Shown here: piece after piece, positions 10,118-37,428 of the stretch
Position numbering within the stretch: the stretch's first letter is position 1
Layout: every line of letters begins with the position of its first letter
Virus record (IMG/VR): IMGVR_UViG_3300046534_001193
Span: 17,992-81,991 of that record
Reading direction: 5' to 3' (one strand)
From: a virus
DNA: 64,000 bases
The notes under the pieces: generated by a model
Databases searched by the model: none
What the model was told of the DNA's origin: nothing
The model's input: the letters and a program-made list of their open reading frames with translations, nothing else
Translations under genes and position numbers: made by a program

Positions 10118-11308
10118 ATGTCATTATTCGCTGATACCGCCAATACCTCTTTAGCCTACGCCGTGGAGTCCACTTTTGACGTAGCTCCTACTGCGGGGTA
10201 TGCACTACTTAGAAATACCAGTGAGAGTTTTAACACCTCTATAGAGAGGGCCGACAGTGATGAAATTACCACTACTCGCCAGTATTCGGGCAGCAGCCAA
10301 GTATCCGGCTCTTCAGCTGGTTCTGTCGGTTTTCAATTGTCGTATGGTGAATACGACCCTTTTCTAGAAGCTGTTTTGCAGTCTTCTGGTTTTAGCACAG
10401 CTTACTCTGATACCGTTGTAGATATCTCTTCTAAGGTCTGCGAAGTAACTTCTACCGCCAATTTAAAAGTCGGTATGCTGGTTAAGCTAACAGGGCTTAC
10501 AGTATCTACTCAAGACGGTGTTTTTACTATTGGGGCAATCCCCGACGCCACTCATTTTACTGTAGTAGAAACCCTCACTGACGAAGGCAGTTCTACAGTA
10601 GCAGCCACTCACGGCGGTTCAGCTTTCAATGAGAAAACGGATCGCAGTTTTACTTTTGAGAAAAATTTAGCAGCAGACGGCGACGATCACTTTTTTATAT
10701 TCAGTGGTCAGAAAGCGTCATCTCTATCTTTAAGTATGACCACTGGTTCCATTATCAGTGGAGACATAGGTTTCATGGGTGCTACGCCAGCAGCCTCTGC
10801 AACGTCTAAAGACGGTGATGGATATACAGCTGCGTCCAGTAACCAGCTGATGAATTCAGTATCAAACGTAAGAGGCTTGTCTTTGCATTCAATTGCTTCC
10901 AATGGTACTGCCACTCTAATAACCGACACTACTTTTCAAGAGCTGTCTTTGTCAATTGATAACAACATGCGAGAGCAGCCAGGTATTGGTTCTTTGTTTT
11001 CCCAAGGTATTGGATCAGGACGATTTAAAGTAGAAGCTTCTGCTACCATGTATTTTACCAACCGAGAAGTTTACGATAAGTTCCTTTCAAACGGGTCAAT
11101 GCAATTGCGTTTTCAGGTTACTGACTCTAAAGACGTGTATGGCAACCGTTATGGTTTTGTTCTGCCGGAACTTAAAATAACCACTTACGAAGCGGCGGCG
11201 ACCGGAGCGGATACTGACATTATGGCTACAATTGGTTTTACTGGCCAAGCAGACACTTTATCAGGCACCGGCAGCAGCCTCATTATTACTCGCATACCTT
11301 CAGCTTAA
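10118..11308 (+). CDS. major tail tube protein with inserted beta domain
   Basis: LAYAVESTF start, SFTFEK, LSIDNN, GRFKVEASATMYF tube-like motifs; followed by terminator. Confidence 0.85.
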   Translation: MSLFADTANTSLAYAVESTFDVAPTAGYALLRNTSESFNTSIERADSDEITTTRQYSGSSQVSGSSAGSVGFQLSYGEYDPFLEAVLQSSGFSTAYSDTVVDISSKVCEVTSTANLKVGMLVKLTGLTVSTQDGVFTIGAIPDATHFTVVETLTDEGSSTVAATHGGSAFNEKTDRSFTFEKNLAADGDDHFFIFSGQKASSLSLSMTTGSIISGDIGFMGATPAASATSKDGDGYTAASSNQLMNSVSNVRGLSLHSIASNGTATLITDTTFQELSLSIDNNMREQPGIGSLFSQGIGSGRFKVEASATMYFTNREVYDKFLSNGSMQLRFQVTDSKDVYGNRYGFVLPELKITTYEAAATGADTDIMATIGFTGQADTLSGTGSSLIITRIPSA

Positions 11309-18267: not shown

Positions 18268-21200
18268 ATGTTAGGACTAATAGCTTTAGGTGGCTACGCG
18301 GGCGCAACGGCAGCTGTAGGATTAGGTGCTTTGACATTTGGTGCTGTAGCAGGAGCCTTGCTTGGTGCTGCCTTCGTCGTGAGCTTTGTAGACCTTATAA
18401 CGCCAGAAGCCGAAGCTGAAATAAAAGGCGTACTGACTACCCGAAAAGGCGCAGTCCAACCATTGCAAGTGATTTACGGCAGAAGGGAAGTGGCGGGCGG
18501 TCAAATATTTTTAGCTTCTTCTGATAGAGAAATCGCTGCAGATCCTCCTGTTTATGAAATTAGGACAGTAATCCGAGAGGGTGGAGATAGCGTCAGCCAA
18601 GAAAGCGTCAATGTGTTCGCTGGCACCGCAGCCTACACTTTACCCAATGCTTTCCGGTGGGTAGTCTACCAATTAGCTGATGGCGATGTGCCGATCGAAG
18701 GCCTTGAAAGCATATACATCAACGACGAATTGCTAGTAGGTTCCAAATATGAAGATTGGGTAAGTTACCGCTTCACTGACGGCAGCCATACCAGCCAACC
18801 TTTCACCGACCTAGCTGCCGCCGTGCCAGGGTGGACATCTGACCACCTAATATTAGGCACGGTTGGTATAGCCATAAGAATGGAATGGAATAAAGACATA
18901 TTTGAAGGTGTGCCTAAGTTCACTTTTGTTTTGAAGGGGACTAAGCTGTTGGACTTGGACGCGCTACCTACGCAGACCAGACGCTATTCAAACAATCCTG
19001 CTGAAGCTCAATTTGACTATTTAATAAATCCTATTTACGGCAAAGGTCTTAGCCCTGTAGACGGTGTAGACCTAAGCGTGGCTTCATTTATAGCTGCGAG
19101 AGATTACGCCAACGATCCTGTTATTGCTTATTCAGGCGGGCCCCAGCACACTCGCATGTCGTCCAATGCAGTTCTGACCGCAGGGTCGACAGTTATGGAC
19201 AACATGCGACAGCTTCTAGTCGGCTGCCGAGGTACTTTGCCTTATATCAACGGCGTATTTAACTTAATGATTGAGCGCGACTACGCTTTTACCGAATACA
19301 AAGATGGCGAAGGCGCAGATTATTCAGAATTTTTTGATTTCAATGAAGATAACATTATCGGTAGTTGGAAAATAAAAGCTGGTGACATTGCTACTCGGTA
19401 TAACCAAGTCAAAGTTATTTTTCCTAATGAAGCGAAGCACTTTGAATCTGATTTTGTCACAGTTTACTCCAACACGTTTAGAGCCGAAGACGGCAGGCTC
19501 TTAGAGAAGACGTTTACATTGACAGGCGTAACCAATGCTTACCAAGCTACGGATACCGCCAATGTCATAATGCGTAAATCTCGACAGCAAATAGACGCCT
19601 CGTTTATGTCAACTCCGCGAGCTAGAAATGTAACTGCAGGTGAGATTGTAACTATCACTCACGCCACGCCTAGTTGGAGCCTAAAGAAGTTCCGGGTATC
19701 TAGTATTGTGCTACTCGCAACAGGGAATTGCAGCGTTACCGTGGCCGAGCACGAGCCGACGGTATACGATTTAACGGTGCCTAATGAGATAGCAACTAGT
19801 CCAGACACTGATTTTCCAGACCCGACTATAGTGGCCAGCTTAGCTGCGCCTACTCTAGTCAGTGACGAGACGGTATTAAAGACAGGCAAAGACGGAACTT
19901 TGACTCCACAACTTAAAATAACTTGGGTAGCGCCGATCGATCCTTTTGTTGTGGGATATGACGTCCAAATAAAAGACATGTCTTCGACAGATTTGGTTTG
20001 GCAAACTGTCGCCTCACCCAACTCGATAGACTCTGTAACTGTAACCATATCCGGCGTAGAAGAAGGCATTGCTTACGATGTTCGTGTTCGGGCTAGAAAC
20101 TCAGGTGGATGGGTCGGAGCGTGGGCCACAACTGAAAATCATACAATTATAGGGCAAACTTCTTTGCCGAGTAACGTCCCTAATTTCTATATCAGTGGCA
20201 GTATTCTGTCTTGGGAAGCCATCACAGACTCAGACAGAGCAGGCTACGTAATCAGGTTCCAGCCAGGTGTTAATCGATCGTGGGGAGACGCTAACCCAGC
20301 TCACGATGGCATTGTTACTGAGTCACCTCACGATTTGTCCATAGATATTTTTGGTCAAAATACACTTATGATTAAGGCAGTTGATCGAACTGGCAACTAC
20401 AGCGAGACGCCTGCGAGCATTATTACCGACTTCGGCAATCCCCTTATTAGCAACGTGTTTGAAGAAGTTGATGATCACGCACTAGGCTTTACGGGAACAA
20501 TAACAGGAGCTGCCGTAGTGTCTGGCGATCTTAAAGCAGACAGTCAAACACCTGTAATCTGGGGTAATGCTTTATCCAATATGTACACTAGCAGCTCTGC
20601 GGCTATGTATGTGGCTGTTCAATACGCTAAGCTGACTTACCTAAGAACTATTACGCCTTCTTTCTCGGCTAGCGGCAACGACTTAGTGATAGAGTCGACT
20701 ATCGCAGGCACCAACTCACAGATTACTTACAGGCCTGAGGCACCAGATTTGATGTGGGAAAGTCTAGATACTCAGCCGATGTGGCAAGATGAGCCTATCA
20801 GCATAGTTGTGAATGGTGATTTTGCTATTGACCATGGTTGGACTCAGCAGAGCGGTTGGACTATTGCAGATGGAAAAGCAAGCAGGAGCAGTGGCGAGTC
20901 TAGTAACACTAGCATTCAACAAACAATAAACATAGTCTCAGGAACTGCTTATACAGTTAGCTATGACAGAACTTATATTTCAGGCAACGGCCAAACACTT
21001 TTTTTCTCTGAATTCTTGACTGATGGTTCATCTTCTACATTGGCACCATATACCAGCACCACCCAAGAGACAGTTACAGTGACTGGAACTTTTACGCCTA
21101 CTTACTCTGGGGCTATGGTTTTAAAATTGTTTGGGATTGGGGATTTCGAGGGCTCAGTAGACAATGTAGTAGTTAAGACGGCTACAGGCAGCACGATAGT

Positions 21201-21960
21201 CGATAACGGAGACTTTTCTAGAGACGTTAGTTGGGATGAAGGTAGTGGCTGGAGCATAGGCGGTGGAGACGCAGACCGAGGCAGTGGTGAAAGCACCAAC
21301 GGCATTCTTATTCAAACAATAGATATAGTTGCGGGAACACCTTACATAATTAGCTATGACAGAACTTATATTTCAGGGGACGGCAGAACAACTTTCTACT
21401 CTGAGTTTGTAACTGATGGGAGTTTTATTAACTTAGGAGATTATGACGACACTACGGAAGAAACAGTTACTGTTACAGATGTTTTTACGCCCGCTTATTC
21501 AGGTTCTATGCTTTTAAGGCTTAGTGCTATTTCTGACTTCACAGGTTCAATAGACAACATAGAAGTAATACCGCAGTACCTAAGTTACGCAACCCCACCG
21601 CCTTACGCCCAGTGGCCAGGCCGGTTTAAAGTGACTGCTCAGCCTTATAATTTTAAGTTTGGGATAGCCCAAGGTTTTACTCGAGGCGTGATATCTGAGT
21701 TAAATTTTAAAGTGGATGCGCTCGACATCACCGAAACATTGGCGGATGTAGCGATAGACTCTGGCGGCACTCGGCTGTCTTTGACTAAAACTTACTCTGT
21801 GATAAAATCAGTTAATTTAACTTTACAAGATGACGGCGGCACAGCAGCTACTGTCAAGGTCATGGATAAAAACGCCACTACAGGCCCATTAATCCAAGGC
21901 TACGATTCATCAGACTCCGCGACCGGCTGCAATGTCGACGCTACTATAATAGGCTACTAA
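18268..21960 (+). CDS. central tail fibre / host-specificity protein J-like with FN3 and two CBM-like domains
   Basis: LQVIYGRREV, YSNNPA..FDYL, FN3 (YDVRVRARN), tandem NGDF...DNV carbohydrate-binding-like domains. Confidence 0.88.
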   Translation: MLGLIALGGYAGATAAVGLGALTFGAVAGALLGAAFVVSFVDLITPEAEAEIKGVLTTRKGAVQPLQVIYGRREVAGGQIFLASSDREIAADPPVYEIRTVIREGGDSVSQESVNVFAGTAAYTLPNAFRWVVYQLADGDVPIEGLESIYINDELLVGSKYEDWVSYRFTDGSHTSQPFTDLAAAVPGWTSDHLILGTVGIAIRMEWNKDIFEGVPKFTFVLKGTKLLDLDALPTQTRRYSNNPAEAQFDYLINPIYGKGLSPVDGVDLSVASFIAARDYANDPVIAYSGGPQHTRMSSNAVLTAGSTVMDNMRQLLVGCRGTLPYINGVFNLMIERDYAFTEYKDGEGADYSEFFDFNEDNIIGSWKIKAGDIATRYNQVKVIFPNEAKHFESDFVTVYSNTFRAEDGRLLEKTFTLTGVTNAYQATDTANVIMRKSRQQIDASFMSTPRARNVTAGEIVTITHATPSWSLKKFRVSSIVLLATGNCSVTVAEHEPTVYDLTVPNEIATSPDTDFPDPTIVASLAAPTLVSDETVLKTGKDGTLTPQLKITWVAPIDPFVVGYDVQIKDMSSTDLVWQTVASPNSIDSVTVTISGVEEGIAYDVRVRARNSGGWVGAWATTENHTIIGQTSLPSNVPNFYISGSILSWEAITDSDRAGYVIRFQPGVNRSWGDANPAHDGIVTESPHDLSIDIFGQNTLMIKAVDRTGNYSETPASIITDFGNPLISNVFEEVDDHALGFTGTITGAAVVSGDLKADSQTPVIWGNALSNMYTSSSAAMYVAVQYAKLTYLRTITPSFSASGNDLVIESTIAGTNSQITYRPEAPDLMWESLDTQPMWQDEPISIVVNGDFAIDHGWTQQSGWTIADGKASRSSGESSNTSIQQTINIVSGTAYTVSYDRTYISGNGQTLFFSEFLTDGSSSTLAPYTSTTQETVTVTGTFTPTYSGAMVLKLFGIGDFEGSVDNVVVKTATGSTIVDNGDFSRDVSWDEGSGWSIGGGDADRGSGESTNGILIQTIDIVAGTPYIISYDRTYISGDGRTTFYSEFVTDGSFINLGDYDDTTEETVTVTDVFTPAYSGSMLLRLSAISDFTGSIDNIEVIPQYLSYATPPPYAQWPGRFKVTAQPYNFKFGIAQGFTRGVISELNFKVDALDITETLADVAIDSGGTRLSLTKTYSVIKSVNLTLQDDGGTAATVKVMDKNATTGPLIQGYDSSDSATGCNVDATIIGY

Positions 21961-24299: not shown

Positions 24300-24674
24300 A
24301 TGATGGGCGACTTAACTAAAAACTTTTCAGCTTGGGAATTCGAATGCCCTTGTGGTTGTGGCGAATCGAAGATGAACGCGAATACGATGGTCAAGATTCA
24401 GCTTTTCAGAGACGCCTACGGTAAAGCGTTCTCTCCCGTAGAAGGTGGCGGTTATCGCTGCAAGGCGTATGAAAAAGGCATAGGCGTTCACAATATGGGA
24501 CTTGCCATTGATCCCGGCATTCCTCGCGCAGACATGTTTCCGGCACTGAAAATAGCTATCGAAGTAGGCTTTACTGGCTACGGGTTAAAACAGAAAGGCG
24601 GTAGATGGCAGATGCACCTTGACGATTACGAAGGCGATGCTAAGCGTCCTCGCCCTTGGCTTTGGACGTACTAA
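24300..24674 (+). CDS. endolysin, peptidase M15 family
   Basis: NFSAWEFECPCGCG, GYRC, HNMGLAID, MHLD zinc-peptidase motifs. Confidence 0.88.
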   Translation: MMGDLTKNFSAWEFECPCGCGESKMNANTMVKIQLFRDAYGKAFSPVEGGGYRCKAYEKGIGVHNMGLAIDPGIPRADMFPALKIAIEVGFTGYGLKQKGGRWQMHLDDYEGDAKRPRPWLWTY

Positions 24675-24675
24675 T

Positions 24676-25146
24676 ATGAATTGGTTTAGCAAAATGATTA
24701 GCGGCGGTATTGATAAAACCGTTGACTCAGTAGGAACGGCATTAGACGGGTTGTTCACATCTGATGAAGAGAGACTGCAAGCAAAGCAGATCATAACATC
24801 AGAAATGAACAAGTTTAAAACAAGTGTAATGGACGCTCAGTCTAAGTACGATGCTGAGATAACAGCTAGGTGGAAGTCCGACAATGAACATGGTGTTACT
24901 AGGTTAGTCAGGCCAATAGCTTATGCTGCTGTTTTATTTGCCTTCTTTCTGATTACTTTTGCCGATGGCAATATTGGTGCTACTTGTTCGATAGTCAAGG
25001 GTGTTGAAACCTGTGTGGGGGGCTTCGTTATCAATCCAGTTTATATACCAGTTTATGAATCTTTGCTAGTTACAATGACAATTGCTTACTTTGGTAGTCG
25101 TGGTATAGAGAAGGTAACAAAGTTACTAGGTAAAAGTAAGTCGTGA
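24676..25146 (+). CDS. holin-like membrane protein
   Basis: DGLFTSDEERL, RLVRP + TM helices, AYFGSRGIEK; follows endolysin. Confidence 0.75.
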   Translation: MNWFSKMISGGIDKTVDSVGTALDGLFTSDEERLQAKQIITSEMNKFKTSVMDAQSKYDAEITARWKSDNEHGVTRLVRPIAYAAVLFAFFLITFADGNIGATCSIVKGVETCVGGFVINPVYIPVYESLLVTMTIAYFGSRGIEKVTKLLGKSKS

Positions 25147-25516: not shown

Positions 25517-28500
25517 ATGGCTTACATAGTAGACACAAAGATTTCCAGTGGTGCCAGTGGTTCTACAACCGTTAAGCTGCCAGCACATTTAGAAAATGAT
25601 GTAGTTTTTGTTTTTTGGAACAGCTTGAATCCCGGAACAATTACTGGCCCTGGTGGAAGTTGGCAGGAAACAACTATAGCTAACCCCGGAGCGGCAGACT
25701 CTAAAGCGTATTTTCAGCGTGTAGGCGGAAGTTCATTGGCTGACCCAGTAATCACAAATACTACAACTAGCAGACAGCCTGGTGCTATGTCTGCAGTTGT
25801 ACGTGGGGCAGACGTTTCGACAGCGACTTCTTGCGTAGATGATGAGGATTCTGTGGGTAGTTCAAGTGCTTTAACTCTTACGACTAGTGCTATGACTTTA
25901 AGTGGTACAAGTTCGTTAATTCTTTTGTTTGGTAGTGGAGAAAGAGGCGATGAGGTTCCGGTCTTAGCGTCAGGTTCAGGTATTGAAGTTTTGTATTTTG
26001 CTCCTGGTGATGACGCAAATATGTTTTTGGCATACAACTATGCAACAGGTTCAGCAAGTGATACTCACACTATTTACCAACTCAATACTGACTCAGAAGG
26101 TATGGCTCTTGCCGCAATAGCTATAAAAGATGATGGTAATTATGTTAATAAAGGATATGTGTCTACCAGCAACGCTGCTGAATTAGTTTTTCTGAATGTA
26201 GGAAATCACGTACATACTATTACTGAAGAAGACGTGACGAATGTAGGTTTTACACCTCAAATATCATCTATCACTCATGCTATCAGTGGTATTACTAAAA
26301 ACACAATTGACGACTCAACTAGTCTTGGGTCTTCTGGCCCTTTACACAGAATTGACACTCACGCCCAATACGGCATAACCATTATATTTAACACCGGACA
26401 AGGTGAATCAACAGATTTAATTTTAACTAAAGGTATGACTTTTGCTACAGCCATTGATTTAAGTGGTCAGATTTTAGCGTTTAGTGGACTTACCCTTTCA
26501 AAATTTACAGAGTCAATTGACAATTTAGGGAGATTGATTGGGTTTAGTGATGGCACTAACGCTTCTGTATTTTTGTTTGACGGATCTGATGCTCTAGTAA
26601 CTTCGCAAAATGGATTAACGGCATTTTTATTAGAAACTGCGCCTTCAGGCTCACCCACTACTTTGACTGGTTATGAAATAGATACTTTCGGGGCTGGTAA
26701 TTTAGATTGGTCAGCTATCGAAACAATATTTGTTGGTGCAAGCTCGACCAATTCCACAGGCATTGAGTACCACACAGGCCCAATGTACAAATTAAAAACC
26801 TTTCCTATGTTAGGAGGAACAGAAACTTTCCCACTCTCTTTTGATGATGTAGTTAAAGCATCAACGGCGGGAGCATTAAACGTAGCAACAGCACAAAGCG
26901 GACAGACTACCGGCCAATTCTATTTAATGGGTAATGTAACTATCGGCGATGGGGTTGAAGATGTTTACTGGGAAAGCAAGAACCAATCTGTAGAATTTCC
27001 AAGAAGTTATAACTATTCAGAAAAATCATTGCAATGCCAAATAAGCGCGGGAGCATTGTCACTGACAATAAATGCTGCAAGCGTAGACAGTGTAATAAGC
27101 CCTATCACCACTACAATCAACTTCGGTAATTTCCATAATTTTGTAGAACATGCAGACACTTTTGATGGCGATATTTATGATTATACAAACCTTACACTTC
27201 TAAACTCCAGCACAACACTGCAAGGCTCAAAAACAAACATAGATAGGTCGGGCGCTATTTGGAGTGGCGGTAAGCAAATAACTCACAATGCGCCAACTAC
27301 TGCAAGCACAGCCAGAGTGTTTAAAGACACAGTTGTTAGTAATGTTGCAGTGGGTGAAACAGCAGCTATTGAAGCTATCACTACTCAAGAGCAGTTTAAA
27401 AATGCTGTGACAGGCGCAACTTTTAAAAATAATACTAACGCTCCAGCAATCTTAATCACTGGTAATCAGACAGGCACATGGGCAGATGACCCTGGATTAA
27501 CAGTTTCTGGGAATACTTTTGATATAAAGTACACAGGAACTACGGATTTCAGTATTCCCTCTTCCGTGTCATTGACAGTTCAGAACACAGAAGCAGAAGC
27601 GGCGGGTAATACAGGTCTAACGATTGTTTTACCTGCTAACACATTGTCGATCAACTCTGACCTAAGCGCTTTGATCCGTTACTTTGTAGATGACGAACAA
27701 ACAGTGGCTGACAGTGACACCAATACAACTTTAGGCTATGACTATGCCAATACCAATCCTATTGATATTGAAGTGTTGCTACAAGGCTACGTACTAGTTA
27801 ACCGACAAAATGTCACACCTGTTAATGGCCCTTTTGACATTGAGCTTGACCCAGACGAGGCTTACAACTCTGGTCACGCCTTAAACATCGACACTGAATA
27901 CGCTTATGTTCGAGGAACAAAAGTATTAACATTCAATTCTGACCAGCAAGCTAGGAATGTTTATTCCTCACTATCAGATGAAATAAGGCTGGATAGCGCT
28001 TACTTTAATACTAAGTTGTTGATGACAGCTATAGGCCCAACTCGGTTTGATTTAACCGTGGGAATGACCGTCGCAGACATGCAGTATTGGAAGGGTGCTG
28101 GATCTCAAGTCTATAACGCACTAGATGCGGTAAACCCTACTGAAAAATGGTGTTTTGTAAAATCAGGCGGTAACATCACAGGATCGACCACCCACTTTAG
28201 GCAAACAGATTCAGGCGCTTCAACAGCTTTGACATTGACTAATAATGTTGTGGATGAGGCTTTCCAATACTATCGAGATGATAATCACGATGGAGATACT
28301 AGTGATACAGACGAGTATAATTATAATGACTACATGCTTATCAAATCATTCTTGGCTGGTAGCAAGCAATCGCGGGTTGATGTTTTAGTAAGCCAAGGCA
28401 TATCAGAAATTGAAAGCTATCAATATGCGGTCAGTCTAGCCAATGCTTCACATGGTTACTCTGGCACTGACCCAGGCATCAGCGCTCAAATAACAATGGT

Positions 28501-29935
28501 TGCTGGTGATACCTTTGGCGGCAAAGTTTTTGCGTATGAGATAATTGATGGTGGCACTAACTCTGGTTCTGATATTGCTGATCAGCTTAATTACGATGCT
28601 GCTGCTAATCCCAACACTGTTATCCCTGGAGGTACTGGTTTACGTTATTTTGAAATGCCTGACGGTATTATTTACAACGCTACTGGGCAAGAGACTGAGC
28701 GTGGTTATAAAGAAGGCACAACCCCTGCTTTGGTCGGATTTTATGTGAGCCGCAGCAGCGCCGACCACCCCGACTTCACGCAGTTTCAAGCTGACGATGG
28801 GACGTATTATATTCCAGCAGTAAACTCCAACATTAGCGGTTCAAATCTTGAGAATACAGCTGGTGGAACTGTCGAGCGCAGAATGCAAATCATCAACTCG
28901 ACAGCTAAAGCAGCGTCAGCATGGCAAGCGAGTACCGCATACAGTGTGGGCGATGTAAGGTTGCGTTCAACAGGCGCAGGCACCGAGCAAATTGGCGGAC
29001 TGTTTATACGGTGTACTACGCCAGGCACTTCAAACGACACAGAGCCAACTTGGAATACAACATTAGCAAACACCACCGCTGACACTAATGGTTCGGGCGA
29101 TGGTGATGTTGTCTGGACTATTTACGGAATTGTTTACTACGATGATGACCCTGCCGCTACGGGTTACGCTGCCACCTATATTGATGGCCAAGAGTTTGCA
29201 TCCAGTGAGTCTTTTGAAGTCAGATTTGCAGAAGAAGATCCTGAAACCAGATTTGTGTTTGGTAGTGTGTCAGGCATTACCTCAAGCTCTGGCTTTTCTT
29301 TTGCGATGTCCGTCGAGGTAGTTTCTCCTTACGCAGAATGGCAATCGGGTGGCTCATTCTACGGAACACAACAGGACTCTACCTATTCACCAAATTTTGA
29401 TTATGACTATATCGTTTTAGATACCAACACTAATTACTATGGCGCAGGTGCGGGAGTGTACTATTGCTATATTCTGACGACTTCTCAGGGGATGTACGAA
29501 TTTTGGGGAGGCGTTACAATTGTTGACGCTGGAAGTATTCGGATTAACAACGGAACTGTTAATCTATACTTTGACGAGACTAATGGTTTTGTTAGGCAAT
29601 TAGACAACGTTAGAATATGGAGAGTTGATGGCGCTAGGCCAGCGCTTGACCCGACAACGGGCGGCTCAGGCATAGAAATCAAATGGGAAGTTCCTGTTCA
29701 AGTTATTGAAATAAATACAGGCTCAGCAGTCAATCAAGCAACTGTTCAATCAGCGCTAACCGCCCAAGGCTATACATCAGGTAGAGCGCCAGAGCTTGAC
29801 AAGATCAATGCTGTCAAAGTTAAAACTGATGATATGACGTACACTATCGGTAACCAGCTCGATGTAAACGTCCAATCAGTCAATGATGTTCTATTGGCGG
29901 GCGATGGCGATGCTACTCCAATGGGCCCTACCTAA
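25517..29935 (+). CDS. large virion-associated adhesin-like protein (1472 aa)
   Basis: Ser/Thr/Gly/Asp-rich multidomain beta protein; CBM5/12-like AWQASTAYSVGD...GTSNDTEPTW...DGDVVWT; GGAGG RBS. Confidence 0.65.
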   Translation: MAYIVDTKISSGASGSTTVKLPAHLENDVVFVFWNSLNPGTITGPGGSWQETTIANPGAADSKAYFQRVGGSSLADPVITNTTTSRQPGAMSAVVRGADVSTATSCVDDEDSVGSSSALTLTTSAMTLSGTSSLILLFGSGERGDEVPVLASGSGIEVLYFAPGDDANMFLAYNYATGSASDTHTIYQLNTDSEGMALAAIAIKDDGNYVNKGYVSTSNAAELVFLNVGNHVHTITEEDVTNVGFTPQISSITHAISGITKNTIDDSTSLGSSGPLHRIDTHAQYGITIIFNTGQGESTDLILTKGMTFATAIDLSGQILAFSGLTLSKFTESIDNLGRLIGFSDGTNASVFLFDGSDALVTSQNGLTAFLLETAPSGSPTTLTGYEIDTFGAGNLDWSAIETIFVGASSTNSTGIEYHTGPMYKLKTFPMLGGTETFPLSFDDVVKASTAGALNVATAQSGQTTGQFYLMGNVTIGDGVEDVYWESKNQSVEFPRSYNYSEKSLQCQISAGALSLTINAASVDSVISPITTTINFGNFHNFVEHADTFDGDIYDYTNLTLLNSSTTLQGSKTNIDRSGAIWSGGKQITHNAPTTASTARVFKDTVVSNVAVGETAAIEAITTQEQFKNAVTGATFKNNTNAPAILITGNQTGTWADDPGLTVSGNTFDIKYTGTTDFSIPSSVSLTVQNTEAEAAGNTGLTIVLPANTLSINSDLSALIRYFVDDEQTVADSDTNTTLGYDYANTNPIDIEVLLQGYVLVNRQNVTPVNGPFDIELDPDEAYNSGHALNIDTEYAYVRGTKVLTFNSDQQARNVYSSLSDEIRLDSAYFNTKLLMTAIGPTRFDLTVGMTVADMQYWKGAGSQVYNALDAVNPTEKWCFVKSGGNITGSTTHFRQTDSGASTALTLTNNVVDEAFQYYRDDNHDGDTSDTDEYNYNDYMLIKSFLAGSKQSRVDVLVSQGISEIESYQYAVSLANASHGYSGTDPGISAQITMVAGDTFGGKVFAYEIIDGGTNSGSDIADQLNYDAAANPNTVIPGGTGLRYFEMPDGIIYNATGQETERGYKEGTTPALVGFYVSRSSADHPDFTQFQADDGTYYIPAVNSNISGSNLENTAGGTVERRMQIINSTAKAASAWQASTAYSVGDVRLRSTGAGTEQIGGLFIRCTTPGTSNDTEPTWNTTLANTTADTNGSGDGDVVWTIYGIVYYDDDPAATGYAATYIDGQEFASSESFEVRFAEEDPETRFVFGSVSGITSSSGFSFAMSVEVVSPYAEWQSGGSFYGTQQDSTYSPNFDYDYIVLDTNTNYYGAGAGVYYCYILTTSQGMYEFWGGVTIVDAGSIRINNGTVNLYFDETNGFVRQLDNVRIWRVDGARPALDPTTGGSGIEIKWEVPVQVIEINTGSAVNQATVQSALTAQGYTSGRAPELDKINAVKVKTDDMTYTIGNQLDVNVQSVNDVLLAGDGDATPMGPT

Positions 29936-29955
29936 AATGATACAGATAATCGATC

Positions 29956-30870
29956 GTGGTATCGAAGGTGGCGAGTGAACCTGTAAATAATTTTTGGGCT
30001 GACGGCTTCTGGGCTACTGGATTTTGGGCCGAAGGTTTTTGGGCAGGCGACGGGCTAGGTACTGATGTTACTGTTGGTCAGATAACTGAGTCTGAGACTT
30101 TATTTGGCTTAGCAGTTATACAAGGCACTACCGCTGTTACTGTTGGTCAGATAACTGAGTCTGAGACTTTATTTGTTTTAACGCCTGTACAAGGAGTAGC
30201 CAGTCTCGCTGTTGGGCAGGTAACTGAGTCTGAGGCTTTATTCGGCCTGACCGTTGCACAAGGTTTAGTCAGTGTTGATGTCGGACAATTAACTGAGTCC
30301 GAATTATTATTTAACTCCGCCGTTGTAACCGGAACTGCTAGTCTCGCAGTTGCACAGCTAACTGAGTCCGAGTTATTATTCGATTCTCAAGTTTTAAGCG
30401 GCTCGGTCAGTCTCAGTGTTGGACAAGTAACTGAGTCCGAGTCCTTATTCAGCTTAGCTGCGCAACTTGTAATTAGTGTTGATGTCGGACAGCTAACCGA
30501 GTCAGAGTCTATATTTGACTCGGCAATTGTGCCAGGCGCAACCAGTGTCACCGTTAGTCGGATAAACGAGTCTGAATTATTATTTGACTCCACTGTAAGC
30601 GGTTTGGTTATTGTCTCTGCTGGACAGCTAATTGAGTCCGAGTCTATATCAGGCTTAGCAGTTATAATAGGAGTCTCTAGCCCTGCTGCCGTACAAATAT
30701 CTGAGTCCGAGTTCATATTTGATTTAGTAGTTATAAAGGACTCGATTGACCCAAATGCCTTTAGGCCTTTCAGAACACTGTCTTTGGGCCTGACTCAAGA
30801 GGTTCTTTTCACTTGCAGCACTTTAGACGCACAATCGGGCAGCTGCAATATACTTAAGCGCTGTAGTTGA
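29956..30870 (+). CDS. repeat protein A: (FWAxG)x4 head plus ten 22-23-aa VxVGQxTESExLF repeats
   Basis: Repeats read directly from the translation; start may be GTG 29968. Confidence 0.8.
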   Translation: MVSKVASEPVNNFWADGFWATGFWAEGFWAGDGLGTDVTVGQITESETLFGLAVIQGTTAVTVGQITESETLFVLTPVQGVASLAVGQVTESEALFGLTVAQGLVSVDVGQLTESELLFNSAVVTGTASLAVAQLTESELLFDSQVLSGSVSLSVGQVTESESLFSLAAQLVISVDVGQLTESESIFDSAIVPGATSVTVSRINESELLFDSTVSGLVIVSAGQLIESESISGLAVIIGVSSPAAVQISESEFIFDLVVIKDSIDPNAFRPFRTLSLGLTQEVLFTCSTLDAQSGSCNILKRCS

Positions 30871-30942
30871 TCTGATGGTACTATTGCACATAGAAGCCTA
30901 ACGGTTGATCCGCCCTGCACAAATTATCAACAGGAGAACAAG

Positions 30943-31323
30943 ATGAAAGTACAAATATTAGCTAGGCCATCATCCGGCGGCAATAGAGCTTACGGGATGA
31001 AAATGTTGTCACCACCTAATACTGGCAAACACAACTTCCGAAAAGACTGGCTGGAAGAACATCGCCAGTTTATCACTAAAACTGACGAGCGAATTACCCT
31101 TCACACTGTTGATGGGGATATTAATTTTAAGGTAGATCATCTGCCTGGTCGTTACTGCCTGACCACAAACGAAAGATTGCCGGACGTGTCGAAAGACCCT
31201 AAAGCGGAAGCCTGTCGTGCGCATGTAGCGGCTCAAGAAAATGCCGTAAAAACTGAGCGATGGCCTCACGGCTACATGGTTGTTGCACCTAAAATGATCA
31301 ACACTACGATGGAACAAGTCTAA
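30943..31323 (+). CDS. hypothetical protein, possible assembly chaperone
   Basis: AGGAG RBS; soluble basic composition; coupled to next gene. Confidence 0.6.
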   Translation: MKVQILARPSSGGNRAYGMKMLSPPNTGKHNFRKDWLEEHRQFITKTDERITLHTVDGDINFKVDHLPGRYCLTTNERLPDVSKDPKAEACRAHVAAQENAVKTERWPHGYMVVAPKMINTTMEQV

Positions 31324-31796
31324 TGGCCAACATAATCCCTAATGAGTCGCTAGGACTTACGCGCCGTTACCTTCAAAATGTTGAAGATAATTCTCCAGCA
31401 GCAGCTCTTGTGCGTGTCCATGCATGGGTAATAACTGCGGCTGATACTAATATTATAGACATGACGGGTAACACTGTCCAAGCACTCGCGGCCTTAGCTG
31501 ACATAGCCGAGGCGACAAACACTGACTATACCAATCAATCCTTTGACGATGCTGATATAACAATTGATGTCAATGACGCCAACAACCGGATAGACATCAG
31601 TTACTCTGACTTGACTTTTACGAGTGTCGACGGCGGTGACGATTGGACACATATAACAGTGAGCTACGACGCTAGCGGGTCAGACACGGACGCCAATACG
31701 GAAGTGTTGCATGTGCTAGATTTTGTTGTGTCTCCTAATGGTGGCGATATTACTGTCGACTTCCCAGCGGTTTGCTACAGAATTGCGCAAGCTTAA
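31323..31796 (+). CDS. 157-aa virion structural beta protein (PNGGDITV C-terminal motif)
   Basis: Acidic beta-rich; motif recalled from phage minor structural proteins. Confidence 0.6.
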   Translation: MANIIPNESLGLTRRYLQNVEDNSPAAALVRVHAWVITAADTNIIDMTGNTVQALAALADIAEATNTDYTNQSFDDADITIDVNDANNRIDISYSDLTFTSVDGGDDWTHITVSYDASGSDTDANTEVLHVLDFVVSPNGGDITVDFPAVCYRIAQA

Positions 31797-31830
31797 CTGC
31801 GGGTTATGATAATTATAGGTTGGGTATTAG

Positions 31831-33681
31831 ATGGGCACATTAGCAGATAGAGTTAAGGAAACGTTTACCACTACGGGCGACGGCGATATTACGTTGGGTA
31901 ATCCGGTGGCTAACCATCAATCTATATATGAAGCCCAAGGCCTCAATGATCCTATCGAATATTTCTGGCAGGATGACGACAATGAAGCATGGGAGTCTGG
32001 GGTAGGGCAGCATACCACCACTACAAATTTCGAGCGCACAACAATAAAGAGCAATTCAAGCGGGACAACTGATCCGTTGGTCATTGGGTCTGGTACAAAA
32101 AGTATAATCTGCTCTCGAAGTGCAGTTACCATTGCTGAACTTTTCGACCAGAGCGTAGCAAGTGGCGCAAGCCCGAACTTTAATATTGCTAACATGACGT
32201 TAGACGATACTGATTTAGAGGTTGTTAACACTACCAACTTGCAAACATTTGCAGAAGAAGTAGATGATGCTTTGCGCAGGGCGAGAGGGACAGGAATCTC
32301 AACGACTTATGTCTCTACTGCCACAGCAGGGGGAACAACGTTTGACCAGCCAGCCGTAAAAGGTGAAATAACTAGTGATGAAGGTTATTTTAGAATTGTT
32401 TACGCAGGTGCTACAGGTGTACCAGTTGCGAACTTATCTGCTACTTCTACTTGGGTTTACATTGACAAAAACAGTGCATTGCAGCAACAAACTACTGCCC
32501 CAACTAGGCAAGACAGAACCAGAAAAGCATTTGTGATGCGTATTGGTGTTAACGTGTCTTCTAATGAGATAATTGGTTTTGAGTATGAGAATAACCCCAT
32601 AGGTCATTATGCTAACAGCCTGAGAGATTTGTACGAGTTTTTGCTGGTGCAAGGTGTGCCGTTCAAAAGAGACCAGATTGTAACGGGTAGGACAGACAAC
32701 CTTGGATTTGATGTGTCAGCAGGGAGTCTCTTAGAGTTCGGCGGTACAGGCGATATCAACAACCCAAACATTAAGAGTTTTGACTTAGTATCAAATGCAA
32801 GCTACAACTTGCTGTCAAGAACAGCACTTATATCATCCGAGACAAACCTCCCGACAGTTTGGGACAACGCTGGTTCTGTAATCGCATTAGGCTCTACAAC
32901 TTTTGCAGGTCATAGATTGTACAGATTTAGTTCTGGTAACTTCGCTATTCAGTACGGGCAAGGAAACTATGCAAACATAAATCTTGCAAGAACTGGAGTA
33001 AGGTTAGAAGATTACGTTTTAAACCCAGTGCTTAAAGACGCAACATTTTTTGGTTGGTGGCTTGTCGCTTTAGAGACGACAGCTACATCAGGAGTAGCAA
33101 ACGCAGAATTTGTTGAGTATACGATAGGAATACAGGGCGGCAGCTCCAGCGGTTTATCGGGTGCCGCGCTTAGGGGTAATAATCTTTCTGACTTGACGGA
33201 TGTAGACGCAGCAAAAACAAACATAGGACTTGGAACTGGCGACACTCCTGAGCTTGCAGGTGCGAATTTTACAGGTGATGTCAGTATAGAGGCTACAGGC
33301 ATAGTCGACATCCTAGGCGGCACCGTCAAGCTAAACAACGCTACCATGTCGGCAATACAAGTTACAATTGCTGATGATGGTGTTGCTACATTGACTTTTC
33401 CTAATCGCTCGTTTGGGGTGCTTAATATGACCGTGGGAAGCAATGCGACTAACGCCAGTAATTCAGACGTTTGTTTTATTGGCTACGTTTCTTTTGGCAC
33501 CAGCTCTAGTGTGAACGCTGCACTTACAGGGGCCGACGTTGAGACAAACATTGTAGACACTCTTGCAGGAGCAACCGGAACAGATGGGGCTGTCACTATA
33601 GGTTTGGCAGGGGTAAGCCGAACCTTATACATTGAAAACCGCCAAGGCTACGGTATAACCCTTAACATAACTCTACTCTAA
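31831..33681 (+). CDS. fibre-like protein (616 aa)
   Basis: LADRVKETFTTTG N-terminal module and NNLSDLTDVDAAKTNIGL fibre motif. Confidence 0.7.
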   Translation: MGTLADRVKETFTTTGDGDITLGNPVANHQSIYEAQGLNDPIEYFWQDDDNEAWESGVGQHTTTTNFERTTIKSNSSGTTDPLVIGSGTKSIICSRSAVTIAELFDQSVASGASPNFNIANMTLDDTDLEVVNTTNLQTFAEEVDDALRRARGTGISTTYVSTATAGGTTFDQPAVKGEITSDEGYFRIVYAGATGVPVANLSATSTWVYIDKNSALQQQTTAPTRQDRTRKAFVMRIGVNVSSNEIIGFEYENNPIGHYANSLRDLYEFLLVQGVPFKRDQIVTGRTDNLGFDVSAGSLLEFGGTGDINNPNIKSFDLVSNASYNLLSRTALISSETNLPTVWDNAGSVIALGSTTFAGHRLYRFSSGNFAIQYGQGNYANINLARTGVRLEDYVLNPVLKDATFFGWWLVALETTATSGVANAEFVEYTIGIQGGSSSGLSGAALRGNNLSDLTDVDAAKTNIGLGTGDTPELAGANFTGDVSIEATGIVDILGGTVKLNNATMSAIQVTIADDGVATLTFPNRSFGVLNMTVGSNATNASNSDVCFIGYVSFGTSSSVNAALTGADVETNIVDTLAGATGTDGAVTIGLAGVSRTLYIENRQGYGITLNITLL

Positions 33682-33690
33682 GGAAATAAA

Positions 33691-33861
33691 ATGCAACCTA
33701 AATACACAGCACAACGGCTCGCCGACACCACCAATGGTTGGGTAGTTACAGAAATAGAAAATGAAAAAAAGAGTGTTGTATTCTGTAACACGTTGTCAAA
33801 TACAGCTGAAGATGCCGTGGAACTTATCGAAGAAAGCCTAAATACTGATGAACCCACTTAA
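33691..33861 (+). CDS. 56-aa protein not in ORF track; possible fibre chaperone
   Basis: AAGGA RBS; MQPKYTAQRLADTTNGWVVTE...DEPT*. Confidence 0.6.
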   Translation: MQPKYTAQRLADTTNGWVVTEIENEKKSVVFCNTLSNTAEDAVELIEESLNTDEPT

Positions 33862-33894
33862 CCAAAGCCTAAGCGCTACAGGCAATAATACGCT

Positions 33895-34356
33895 ATGAGT
33901 TTAGGCTTCGCCCCTTTAGGCACCTTGCCCCTTGGCGGTCAAGTTGTTGACCCTAGCCCACAATCGGTTGCTGTATACCAGCTAACCGAAAGCGAAGCGC
34001 TATTTAGTTCTTCTGCTGTCCCAGGTGTCACCAGCATAGCGGCATCATTAGCCAGCGAACAAGAAACTTTATTTGACTTGGCAGTAGCTACAGCGATATC
34101 AATTAGCTCAGTCCAAGTAGACGAAAATGAATCTTTATTTGACTTGGCAGTATCTCATGGAGCCTTTAGTGTAGCTACTTCTCAAATAACTGAGTCAGAA
34201 TCCTTATTTGATTTGTCAGTATCTGAGGGTGGCTTCGGTAAAGCTGCCTCACAGATTACCGAAAGTGAGTCATTGCTGGCAGCAACAGCGCGAATATCTT
34301 TCCTAGGAAAAACAGTTTACGCGACTTTAAGTATATCCAGACACATCTCATTTTAA
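33895..34356 (+). CDS. repeat protein B: LGFAPLG head plus five 22-23-aa QxTESExLF repeats
   Basis: Same repeat consensus as 29956-30870. Confidence 0.8.
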   Translation: MSLGFAPLGTLPLGGQVVDPSPQSVAVYQLTESEALFSSSAVPGVTSIAASLASEQETLFDLAVATAISISSVQVDENESLFDLAVSHGAFSVATSQITESESLFDLSVSEGGFGKAASQITESESLLAATARISFLGKTVYATLSISRHISF

Positions 34357-34458
34357 GTGAGAATGTTCCAGTGATAAGCGACTCGCCTATAGAGACTAAG
34401 TTGCTAGACTGAAGGAATTAAAGTATCCTTGTTTTTAACGCTAATCTAGCAGGGCCAA

Positions 34459-34773
34459 ATGTCGACAATAACTGGTGAGATACACGTCAACTCCGTAGGC
34501 ACAGTCTTCGAAATAACCTTAATCGAAAACGGCACAGCAGTACCTATAGCCACTGCCACGACCTTAACGATAACTTTTAAGAAGGCTACAGGCGCTACTA
34601 TTAGTCGTGCGGCCGCATTGTCTACGGACGGATTTGACGGCAAGATGAGTTACGCTACTATCAGCGGAGACTTAGACGTTGACGGTTCATGGATGTTACA
34701 AGCGTACATAGCCATGCCCAGCTGGCAGGGTTACTCCAGTATTGGGGAATTTGAAGTTTTGGGAAATCTTTAG
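34459..34773 (+). CDS. small Ig-like structural protein (BppU N-terminal-like)
   Basis: DGKMSY..GDLDVDGSW.LQAY motif. Confidence 0.65.
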   Translation: MSTITGEIHVNSVGTVFEITLIENGTAVPIATATTLTITFKKATGATISRAAALSTDGFDGKMSYATISGDLDVDGSWMLQAYIAMPSWQGYSSIGEFEVLGNL

Positions 34774-35289: not shown

Positions 35290-37428
35290 TTAAAGTTCGA
35301 CTATATTGGTGGCAACGCCTTTGTCGGACTCTCTGTGAGTTACCATAAGTACCTGTTCATTGCCGAGAAGGGCGCCTGACAATCTCATGGCGGGCTCTTC
35401 TCGCATTGCCTCTGTAGGTTCATCCAGCACCACAAGGGCACAGGAGCTGCGCAAAGACTTCGCCAATGCTAATCTGACAGCTACGCCTATGAAGCCTCTC
35501 TGCATGCCAGACGCACTCTCTACCGGTGCAAATACACCATCTTCACAATACATAAAGCCTTCTTTTTCCGATCGCATCAGTGCAGTGATACTGTTATTAG
35601 TCGATTGCATCAGAAATCCTGAAGCCGCACCGAGTATGTTAGCCCATACTGAGGTCAGGAACCTAGAACGAGAGTCTTTCAAGTATTGTACAAAGTCTGA
35701 CAAAGTTTTGACTTTACCTAGCTTTTCTTGGAATTCCAGTTCATCAGCCAAAGCCTTGCCTAGCTCTTTGATTTCCGTAGCCATCTCAGACAGCTGAATC
35801 TTCGCACCGTTTATAAGGTCTCTCGATTGGTTGAAATCAACTTCAAATTGCTTTATCTCATCCCGCAAGGTTTGAAGGGCAAGTTGACCTACGACTGGTA
35901 AAGACAATCCGTGTAGCTGCGCCAAGTCGGCATTGGCTGCTTTGATGCCTTCCTCCGCACTTGCCAGCTTAGCCGCATTATCATTTATCTGCTTTTGCAG
36001 GGAGGTTGCTAAAGTTTGAGACTTTCTGTCGTTCTGCAATAGCTTAGACTCGGCACCGGTATCAGTCCAAATAGCAGTTTCTAAGTAGGCATCATTTTCT
36101 GCAATACGCTCTTCCCAATCCAATTGCCGCTTGTGCCAGCCTTTGTAGTACGTGTCGTAATCCTGCTCTTCGGCGTCAAATATAGGCTTGGCGATAGCTG
36201 CCTTATCTTCTATCTCTGCCAGCTTGGCCAGCAATGGTTTTAGAGAGTCTTTAGCTGATTGCAGCTCTTCTACGTGCGCAGCCTTTGACTCTTCACTGAC
36301 AATGCTCTGCTTACAGGCTGAGCAAACGCCTGAGGCTAAGGCTTGTTCGGTTGCAGTTACAAGGGATTGGGCACTTTTAGCTTCAGGGGATATTTTTGCG
36401 TAATCCTCGCGCAATTGGTCTACAACTGCTTTAGCTTTGGTAACTTTGTTGGATAGCTCATTGTCATTGATAATTCCAGCTTTGCAATTTCCTAAGACCT
36501 CCTTAAACTTCTCAGAGCTTTCCTTTACTCGGGCTATCTCTGTATTGGTTGCAATAGCTTTATTGTTATTTCGCTCACGTTGATCAAGATCTTCTTCGCT
36601 TGCTATTTCGCCTAGTTCAGCCAGCTCAGCAGCCAGACTTTTAGCAGTTGCACTGTACAATGCTTCTGAGGCTATAGCGCTTCCTAAAGTATTTTCAGCT
36701 ACCGCAATGTCCCGAGTATTCTGCTCAGCCTTCTGGTTGCCTTGTTCACCGGCTTCTAAATGTCGCTGCGATATAGCCTTGGAAGCTGTCGTTTTAGCAG
36801 AGTCGTCTTCCTCTTCTGCGATGTTTTTAGCTAATTCAGCATGTTCAGCTGTGACTTCTTTTGTTCGGGACTCGATTTCGGCTGCGCTGCTAGTAACTCG
36901 ACTCTCCGAAAACGAATCAGTATCGCGCTTCAAATCTCGCAAGTCGGTGCCAGCCAGCTTAATCATTTCGTCAATGAACTCGACGCCCGAGAACCTCTCT
37001 ACGTCGCGCTGCAGCTGAGTTGAACCGATAGTTAGCAACGCTGATGTCTCGCCTTGTGCTGACCAGTTCAGCATTCTGAAACCTTTCAGGTCGGTGCCTG
37101 TTATATTTTCTTCAATGTAGGCTGAGCAGACGGAGTTACCAGTGGCAACCGGTGTGTTATCGACTAACACTTTGCAATTCTTCAAGGTGCGAATGATTGT
37201 ATATTGAGCCATAACTACTATTACTTCACAGTCTTTCTCTCCCCAAGTCGGAATCTTGTCGGCGCTACCTGGTACAGCTTTGACGCCAAACAAGGCAAAC
37301 ATCAGCGCTTGGGTAACCGTAGTCTTACCCTTGGCGTTGTCACCGCAGATAATGTTCAAGTCTGGCGTGAAGTCGAAGTGTCCACTAGCCAGCTTCTTAA
37401 AGTTTTTAGTTGTGATAGATTTTAACAT
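35290..37428 (-). CDS. SbcC/Rad50-like ATPase subunit of recombination nuclease
   Basis: GDNAKGKT Walker A, coiled coils, CSAC zinc hook, ASGMQ signature, VLDEP, VTH. Confidence 0.93.
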   Translation of the reverse strand: MLKSITTKNFKKLASGHFDFTPDLNIICGDNAKGKTTVTQALMFALFGVKAVPGSADKIPTWGEKDCEVIVVMAQYTIIRTLKNCKVLVDNTPVATGNSVCSAYIEENITGTDLKGFRMLNWSAQGETSALLTIGSTQLQRDVERFSGVEFIDEMIKLAGTDLRDLKRDTDSFSESRVTSSAAEIESRTKEVTAEHAELAKNIAEEEDDSAKTTASKAISQRHLEAGEQGNQKAEQNTRDIAVAENTLGSAIASEALYSATAKSLAAELAELGEIASEEDLDQRERNNNKAIATNTEIARVKESSEKFKEVLGNCKAGIINDNELSNKVTKAKAVVDQLREDYAKISPEAKSAQSLVTATEQALASGVCSACKQSIVSEESKAAHVEELQSAKDSLKPLLAKLAEIEDKAAIAKPIFDAEEQDYDTYYKGWHKRQLDWEERIAENDAYLETAIWTDTGAESKLLQNDRKSQTLATSLQKQINDNAAKLASAEEGIKAANADLAQLHGLSLPVVGQLALQTLRDEIKQFEVDFNQSRDLINGAKIQLSEMATEIKELGKALADELEFQEKLGKVKTLSDFVQYLKDSRSRFLTSVWANILGAASGFLMQSTNNSITALMRSEKEGFMYCEDGVFAPVESASGMQRGFIGVAVRLALAKSLRSSCALVVLDEPTEAMREEPAMRLSGALLGNEQVLMVTHRESDKGVATNIVEL

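Follow-up and report, generated by a model that had tools for sequence, protein, structure and literature searches.

In the literature that we searched, rope-and-bead fibres of phages are described in only a handful of cryo-electron microscopy studies, dating from 2024-2026. According to the available parts of one source (PMC12609058), Whisker and Fiber-1 dimers wrap around a rope in the way that beads sit along a thread, two of them on each rope in Bas63 and five in GP4, and the GP4 rope, a protein of its own, is interlocked with an immunoglobulin-like (Ig-like) collar. The available parts of a second source (PMC13730344) describe 11 dimers that form an augmented beta-sheet with a fibre-dock domain in A1002, and give known bead proteins a size of 140-171 amino acids (aa), with 160 aa for the VP1 bead and 140 aa for GP4 gp80; the fibre-dock residue ranges printed there sum to 268 aa, which by our arithmetic is about 24 aa per dimer. 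Here we analysed a stretch of viral DNA of 64,000 nucleotides (nt), hereafter the window, that covers bases 17992-81991 of the 81,991-bp record IMGVR_UViG_3300046534_001193, an uncultured metagenomic contig rated 100% complete. The window encodes two repeat proteins, repA and repB, and one small protein, g157, which we refer to as rope A, rope B and the bead protein, respectively. Because the genes are linked when searched from either side, the complex is predicted, and solved rope-and-dimer fibres offer a match, we consider it probable that these proteins build a chain-like rope-and-bead fibre with one g157 dimer per repeat, that is, ten dimers on rope A and five on rope B. The three genes are as follows.

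Rope A (repA): 29956-30870, + strand, repeat protein of 304 aa
Bead protein (g157): 31323-31796, + strand, 157 aa, phrog_26662
Rope B (repB): 33895-34356, + strand, repeat protein of 153 aa

Rope A contains 10 repeats and rope B contains 5, spaced by 22-23 aa, each with the core VGQxTESExLF, which lies within the longer consensus VxVGQxTESExLFxLxV. In repA, the repeats occupy aa 35-262 (nt 30058-30741) and are followed by a C-terminal tail of 42 aa, while in repB they occupy aa 22-135 (nt 33958-34299), followed by a tail of 18 aa. BLOSUM autocorrelation reached its maximum at lag 23 in both proteins (1.58 in repA, 1.31 in repB), compared to largest values of 0.11 and 0.30, respectively, in 200 shuffles of each. 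The two proteins aligned to each other with an expectation value (E) of 1.3e-19 and 43% identity, and at the DNA level a 69-nt tandem repeat with 77% matches spans the first 3.4 units of repA. A preliminary description of this region, made from its letters alone, had counted 10 and 5 repeats with a shared consensus, and period, core motif and the match between A and B all confirm this. The different heads that it reported are also present: the repA N-terminus, NFWADGFWATGFWAEGFWAG, holds four FWAxG-like units (head, aa 12-31), and the repB N-terminus, MSLGFAPLGTLPLGG, holds the LGFAPLG head, a type that was also seen on the 197-aa rope of locus L025. Of the C-terminal 'TLS(L/I)' strand said to be common to A and B, a four-residue match stands, and the tails are otherwise dissimilar. 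Neither repA nor repB matched a family in Pfam, PHROG or NCBIfam, and no homology to tape measure families was found in these three collections. The term 'ruler', used in the same description, therefore fits the ropes only in the loose sense that repeat number would set bead number.

Linkage between rope and bead genes was found from both directions. For the bead-first set, 39 viral loci were fetched with the g157-family alignment, and a same-strand repeat protein was present in 32/39, mostly just downstream of the bead gene. For the rope-first set, a degenerate DNA pattern scan for VGQxxETDxAQ returned 117 new loci, 110 with a repeat open reading frame (ORF), of which 94 were distinct. A same-strand g157-family gene was detected in 47/48 of the rope-first loci with at least 3 kb of upstream sequence and in 32/33 of those with at least 5 kb; after removal of loci overlapping the bead-first set, these values were 43/44 and 30/31, respectively. 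The 43/44 linkage spans very different flanking genes and G+C contents, and the N- and C-terminal parts of the rope proteins vary widely, with the repeat as their sole common part. It is the repeat that accompanies g157 from locus to locus. Co-occurrence of the two families had been suggested as a check on the preliminary description, and they proved to be near-obligate neighbours both ways.

The predicted complex agrees with the gene linkage. We folded two copies of g157 (31-row alignment) together with a 69-aa piece of repA that comprises three repeats (nt 30058-30264; 11-row alignment). Three runs scored 0.70, 0.85 and 0.73 (median 0.73), while the control complexes scored 0.36, 0.02 and 0.00; the best control was an unrelated partner, and the value of 0.00 was obtained for the rope with an unrelated protein. 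The score mark of the complex tool is reached by 58/80 solved complexes and by 2/110 mismatched pairs. The predicted local distance difference test (pLDDT) score of the partners in the complex was at least 49. In the best run, rope residues 45-69, which include repeat 3 (47-69), contact both g157 copies, and the bead residues involved are the same in each copy (3-5, 10-13, 111, 130-136 and 139-157). The bead C-terminal strand (148-155) lies against VGQVTES in this model, with the second copy on the following AL, and the invariant Glu of the repeat contacts bead residues L10 and G11 (invariant, 31/31) as well as R153, a position that is basic in 29/31. The model thus predicts that both bead copies clamp one repeat; in the words of the tool's own verdict, it 'supports binding; it does not show it'.

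In predicted fold, the bead protein itself may weakly resemble components of solved rope-and-dimer fibres, whose beads are small proteins (about 110-170 aa) with an N-terminal helix and an incomplete beta-sandwich. It belongs to phrog_26662, a PHROG family of unknown function, and had 34 homologues in a word-index search. Given that the g157 family is represented by a single gene in the phage genome, both ropes would use the same bead. The AlphaFold2 (AF2) model of g157 (pLDDT 89) combines a helix at the N-terminus with a body rich in beta-strands. The top fold matches of this model in the PDB, all of them weak and named here by their entries, were 9rkv_A, from a tail-fibre entry of Agrobacterium phage 7-7-1, followed in second place by 8jou_a, from the entry 'Fiber I and fiber-tail-adaptor of phage GP4', with a length of 136 residues that is consistent with the 140-aa GP4 gp80. 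Further matches included 9mt4_K (Bas63 connector) and, at rank 14, 9c39_K (Sf14 neck), and matches in BFVD included N-terminal parts of proteins labelled as tail-collar fibre proteins. The spacing of docking sites on the ropes, 22-23 aa, also compares well with the value of about 24 aa that follows from the residue ranges available for A1002.

In the mechanism that we propose, each 22-23-aa repeat would supply two short strands, each of them joining the beta-sheet of one g157 subunit in a dimer, such that one dimer clamps one repeat. RepA would then carry 10 dimers and repB 5, so that one bead gene would serve fibres of two classes, whose lengths stand in a 2:1 ratio. Scaled from the dimensions in the available text on A1002, where about 300 Å of rope holds 11 dimers, fibre lengths of approximately 27 and 14 nm would result. 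The preliminary description had each repeat binding one copy or ring of the 157-aa subunit by strand donation; docking by strand pairing is retained here, as suggested by linkage and the complex model, but the docked unit is most likely a dimer rather than one copy or a ring. Its idea that A and B template chains of 10 and 5 units finds in silico support in the linkage, the complex prediction and the match to solved fibres. By analogy with those fibres, we infer that the chains may be present on the virion, and that both their point of attachment and a function in host-surface scanning or adhesion may follow the known cases. Any roles of the rope heads, the C-terminal tails, and the proteins g104, g126, g1472 and g616 described below are likewise putative.

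The repeat defines a large protein family. A profile was built from three-repeat pieces of repA and repB and of P0001 and P0002, the sole two word-index matches, and searched against 1.84 billion representative proteins (50%-identity clusters), where it matched 1275 proteins at E ≤0.001, 746 at E 1e-10 and 150 at E 1e-30. Ten family members compared to Pfam and PHROG yielded one sub-threshold Pfam match and one weak match to a PHROG family without known function, and the literature searched contained neither a description of the rope repeat nor a survey of rope proteins. A single-repeat hidden Markov model (HMM) was too insensitive for unit counting across the family; instead, units were estimated as HMM-covered length divided by 22.5, which gives 10.0 for repA and 5.1 for repB. 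By this estimate, the best 150 family members, which are skewed to long arrays, have about 6-47 units, with a median of 15. In 136/150 of them the repeats are preceded by an N flank of at least 100 aa, and in 79/150 they are followed by less than 50 aa. Based on these flank lengths, the usual rope design is a globular N-terminal domain, the repeats and a short tail. Judged by sequence, repA and repB are unusual in the family in that they have a short peptide head only, without a globular N-terminal domain. The head motif of repA occurs outside the rope family too, as indicated by a 72-aa ORF (locus L001, 3472-3687) that has the same FWxxGFW x3 head but no VGQ-type repeats, on a contig piece without a bead or g126 gene.

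Among 50,697 phage records, no match was obtained with either megablast of the module or tblastn of repA and g157, and a single-protein scan of viral contigs with g157 found nothing. The metagenome scan retrieved one 1.5-kb Tara contig (L161, 1-1477) from a sister phage, in which the repA counterpart retains the FWxxGFW head as well as the '...NILK' C-terminus and has one canonical and approximately three diverged units. Given that these roughly four units correspond to ten in repA, rope length changes between close relatives. At another locus (L008, 10001-14354), a 931-aa rope protein is preceded by three bead-family genes in tandem (157, 181 and 156 aa); the 181- and 156-aa paralogues both match phrog_26662, and the arrangement is reminiscent of the A1002 fibre, which incorporates two types of bead.

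More divergent bead homologues (L023, L027) led to cultured phages, namely the Streptomyces phages Hiyaa, Spocter, Keanu and Galactica and the cyanophage Pam4 (a Pseudanabaena phage). In the regions L163 9001-12801 (Hiyaa) and L162 9001-14424 (Pam4), the bead-family genes Hiyaa gp12 and Pam4_34, respectively, were recognized with HMM E values of about 1e-18. Large proteins, Hiyaa gp13 and Pam4_36, are encoded downstream of these bead genes, in a region where genes are annotated as hypothetical or minor tail. The repeat profile matched neither Hiyaa gp13 nor Pam4_36; weaker periodic segments were present at residues 600-1060 of the former (lag 20) and 450-560 of the latter (lag 18), each exceeding all 200 shuffles. 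In Hiyaa, the module is flanked by the capsid genes and the head-to-tail adaptor, while those of Pam4 and L027 come after tape measure or baseplate genes. Given that the position of the module differs among relatives, genome position does not fix the attachment site, for which the preliminary description had proposed the head or collar.

Several points weigh against the rope-and-bead interpretation. All of its support is computational, and the source is an uncultured metagenomic record. The Foldseek matches of g157 in the PDB were all weak (E 0.1-1, template modelling scores of 0.33-0.47); searched against PDB sequences, the bead profile gave only one match, unrelated and at E 0.65, and the rope profile gave 0 matches at E up to 10. 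The calibration of the complex tool is only roughly valid for a prediction made with user-supplied alignments, and the share of contacts common to the runs is only given as at least 3%, a low agreement that the presence of three equivalent repeats could explain, but that an unspecific fit would produce as well. Conserved bead columns were not significantly enriched at the predicted interface, which holds 13/45 of them in 32/157 residues (p = 0.07). The passing score could also reflect a learned likeness to the solved analogues, although sequence similarity to them is undetectable. As far as sequences can tell, then, the system appears to work like the rope-and-dimer fibre family while having no detectable kinship to the solved beads and ropes.

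Other explanations account for part of these observations. The repeat proteins may instead be self-sufficient fibre shafts, either homotrimeric beta-structures or monomeric beta-solenoids with one coil per repeat, and g157 an adaptor, cap or chaperone that acts at one site or transiently. It is general knowledge that a 22-23-aa period with alternating hydrophobic residues suits beta-helix coils and that small genes beside fibre genes often encode chaperones, and the repeats of most family members lie stalk-like between globular domains, as seen in the long N flanks of the 136/150 mentioned above. We nevertheless regard such shafts as unlikely. As indirect evidence on autonomous folding, which the preliminary description had named as a refutation, the 69-aa rope piece had a pLDDT of only 24 beside an unrelated protein, when g157 was swapped out, and of about 50 when one of its three repeats was bound by g157; the conserved repeat core, rather than an end, lies at the middle of the predicted contact; and linkage tracks the repeat despite differing flanking domains, with a per-site spacing that matches the solved ropes.

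It seems less plausible still that g157 is an assembly-only holdase, which would keep an aggregation-prone, beta-rich repeat protein in solution and be absent from the mature virion. While such a holdase would account equally for the gene linkage and the predicted contact, the nearest structural analogues of g157 are stoichiometric virion components, and the tandem arrays of up to three g157 paralogues in some loci (L008), comparable to the two A1002 bead types, are not what it would lead us to expect. That the linkage merely reflects a shared mobile fibre cassette without direct contact, with the predicted interface as an edge-strand docking artefact, is very improbable, given that the unrelated control at 0.36, the low run agreement and the non-significant interface conservation are offset by a score 0.37 above the best control, by the 0.00 of the rope with an unrelated protein and by the persistence of the 43/44 linkage across such different flanking genes and G+C contents.

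The putative rope-and-bead genes belong to a larger module in the genome of a marine siphophage of about 82 kb. Its siphovirus late operon, on the + strand, encodes the large terminase, portal, protease, major capsid protein, a Phage_tube_2 tail tube protein and tail chaperones, and its tail-tip genes encode a 1437-aa tape measure protein (12283-16596; phrog_9696, E 4e-48), a distal tail protein and a J-like central fibre protein of 1230 aa. The tail tube protein (10118-11308) is unusually long, at 396 aa, with Phage_tube_2 spread across residues 7-376, and the J-like protein (18268-21960) has an fn3 domain. Downstream of the tape measure, distal tail and central fibre genes are the lysis genes, an endolysin-like ORF and a holin, and the module of eight ORFs comes after these, which bears out the 'post-lysis' position given to it previously. 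All eight ORFs were found at the places and with the lengths first reported. On the 3' side of the module are convergent minus-strand genes, the first encoding an SbcC-like ATPase at 35290-37428. The lysis genes and the five remaining genes of the module are listed below.

Endolysin-like ORF: 24300-24674, + strand, phrog_894 (E 2.4e-11)
Holin: 24619-25146, + strand, phrog_3427 (E 2e-15)
g1472: 25517-29935, + strand, large virion-type protein of 1472 aa, directly upstream of the rope A gene
g126: 30943-31323, + strand, 126 aa, directly upstream of the bead gene
g616: 31831-33681, + strand, fibre-like protein of 616 aa, between the bead gene and rope B
g56: 33691-33861, + strand, small acidic ORF of 56 aa, between g616 and rope B
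g104: 34459-34773, + strand, BppU_N-type Ig-like protein of 104 aa

The gene for g126 is the closest companion of the bead gene, whose start it overlaps by one base with its stop. The fetched loci contained 56 ORFs of the g126 family, which abut the bead gene upstream in all cases with compared coordinates. Most members have a Zn-ribbon-like motif (PGRYCxHCGxKL...H..H...C), and the copy in the window is without most of these Cys and His residues. The AF2 model of g126 was confident (pLDDT 94) and had no fold match in the PDB.

The BppU-type Ig-like label that g104 had received is upheld by Pfam BppU_N (PF10651), which matched residues 16-85 above its gathering threshold (E 5.3e-6; 26.6 bits vs. 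a cutoff of 23.1). A scan for relatives of g104 found nothing, and among the fetched loci there was only one other case of an Ig-like protein after a rope: locus L051 (1153-4079) has the order g126-like, bead, rope and g104-like BppU_N-type protein, with a g104 homologue at E 2e-9 whose start overlaps the rope stop. Based on this arrangement and domain type, g104 may be considered a candidate anchor or adaptor for the ropes, on which their C-termini might dock as the preliminary description proposed. A g104-like Ig protein after the FWxxGFW-head ORF of L001 was also considered and dropped, as neither phmmer (E up to 1) nor Pfam gave support for it.

The large neighbours of the ropes are less clearly assigned. 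The preliminary description called g1472 'adhesin-like' and g616 a 'second fibre'; the proteins exist, but these names are labels only. For g1472, the single PHROG match was to phrog_20658, head decoration, at residues 1091-1210 (E 3e-6), with nothing beyond it in the family scans and no homologue in the fetched loci. For g616, sub-threshold leads pointed to the short tail fibre gp92 (E 0.14) and to Atlas phage fibre clusters (all below 0.9), and no homologue was found in the fetched loci either. Both proteins may be fibre parts. The genes g616, g56 and repB share one reading frame, in which they are separated by one and two stop codons (33631-33960), while g1472 and repA, with 20 nt between them, do not share a frame; there was no sign of fusion via readthrough or frameshift for either g616-g56-repB or g1472-repA.

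Taken together, the rope repeat, the phrog_26662 bead and g126 might represent a widespread, unannotated fibre kit of tailed phages (at least 1275 rope clusters at 50% identity), in which repeat number sets fibre length and a distal domain is normally fused to the rope N-terminus. In the phage studied here, this design might be split into two headless ropes with 10 and 5 sites, one bead, and peptide heads (FWAxG x4 and LGFxPLG) that recruit g1472 and g616 in trans, resulting in two interchangeable 'adhesin-on-a-rope' appendages anchored via the BppU_N-like protein. We offer this joint reading tentatively, since as a whole it is possible but rather doubtful.

No Pfam, PHROG or NCBIfam family marks the ropes and bead of the window as such. 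If the rope-and-bead interpretation is correct, a phrog_26662 bead gene with g126 in front and a 22-23-aa VGQxxE(S/T)(D/E) repeat nearby would be a signature that flags such fibres in more than 1000 protein clusters, and siphophages as well as cultured phages such as the Streptomyces Hiyaa group and cyanophage Pam4 would be among the carriers. The rule of one repeat for one dimer would be testable, with fibre length written in the repeat count, and templated fibre assembly and modular host-range parts could be studied in a tractable system of two proteins.

Compared to the described systems, as far as the available parts of their sources allow, this locus resembles the chain-like Fiber I of the Ralstonia podophage GP4 (PDB 8JOU), which likewise has a separate rope gene and a small bead (gp80 with 140 aa vs. 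157 aa here), and in which five dimers per rope equal the number of repeats in repB; the GP4 fibre is joined to an Ig-like fiber-tail adaptor, for which the Ig-like g104 is a candidate counterpart. In contrast to podophage GP4, the phage analysed here is a siphophage with a lambda-like tail tip and has two ropes of different length for one bead, and sequence similarity between the two systems is undetectable. The fibre of the Pseudomonas podophage A1002 (PMC13730344) has dimers that augment a beta-sheet with the rope, as is predicted here, and a globular domain located N-terminally of the rope, at its distal side, which is also the arrangement in most of the repeat family. However, the A1002 rope is a domain of a nozzle protein (nozzle-rope gp39) and carries two beads, gp40 and gp41, on one rope, whereas the ropes of the window are small, free-standing proteins without a globular head that would share one bead.

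The collar-whisker complexes of the myophages Bas63 and Sf14 (PDB 9MT4, 9C39; PMC12609058) resemble the proposed fibres in that dimers, there of the whisker, wind around a rope; that rope is tied to an Ig-like collar, a role for which g104 is a candidate here, and the whisker, with an N-terminal helix and an incomplete sandwich, may be similar to the g157 model with its N-terminal helix and beta-rich body. In these phages, however, the collar protein itself provides the rope, as an extension at its N-terminus that holds two dimers at the neck, while the ropes described here are far longer. The neck fibre of the Anabaena myophage A-1(L) is also beaded, with many copies of a small protein and a larger distal bead, but is constructed differently, from trimer beads joined head to tail, with no threading rope protein described in the available part of the source (PMC10966104). 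The preliminary description had proposed a 'pilus-like tape-measure' mechanism; the locus points not to a new mechanism of this kind but to the rope or chain-like fibre already described for GP4, VP1, A1002, Bas63 and Sf14. While the mechanism is known, what is new is the sequence family with its regular repeat, the breadth of this family, its occurrence in a siphophage and the arrangement of two ropes with one bead.

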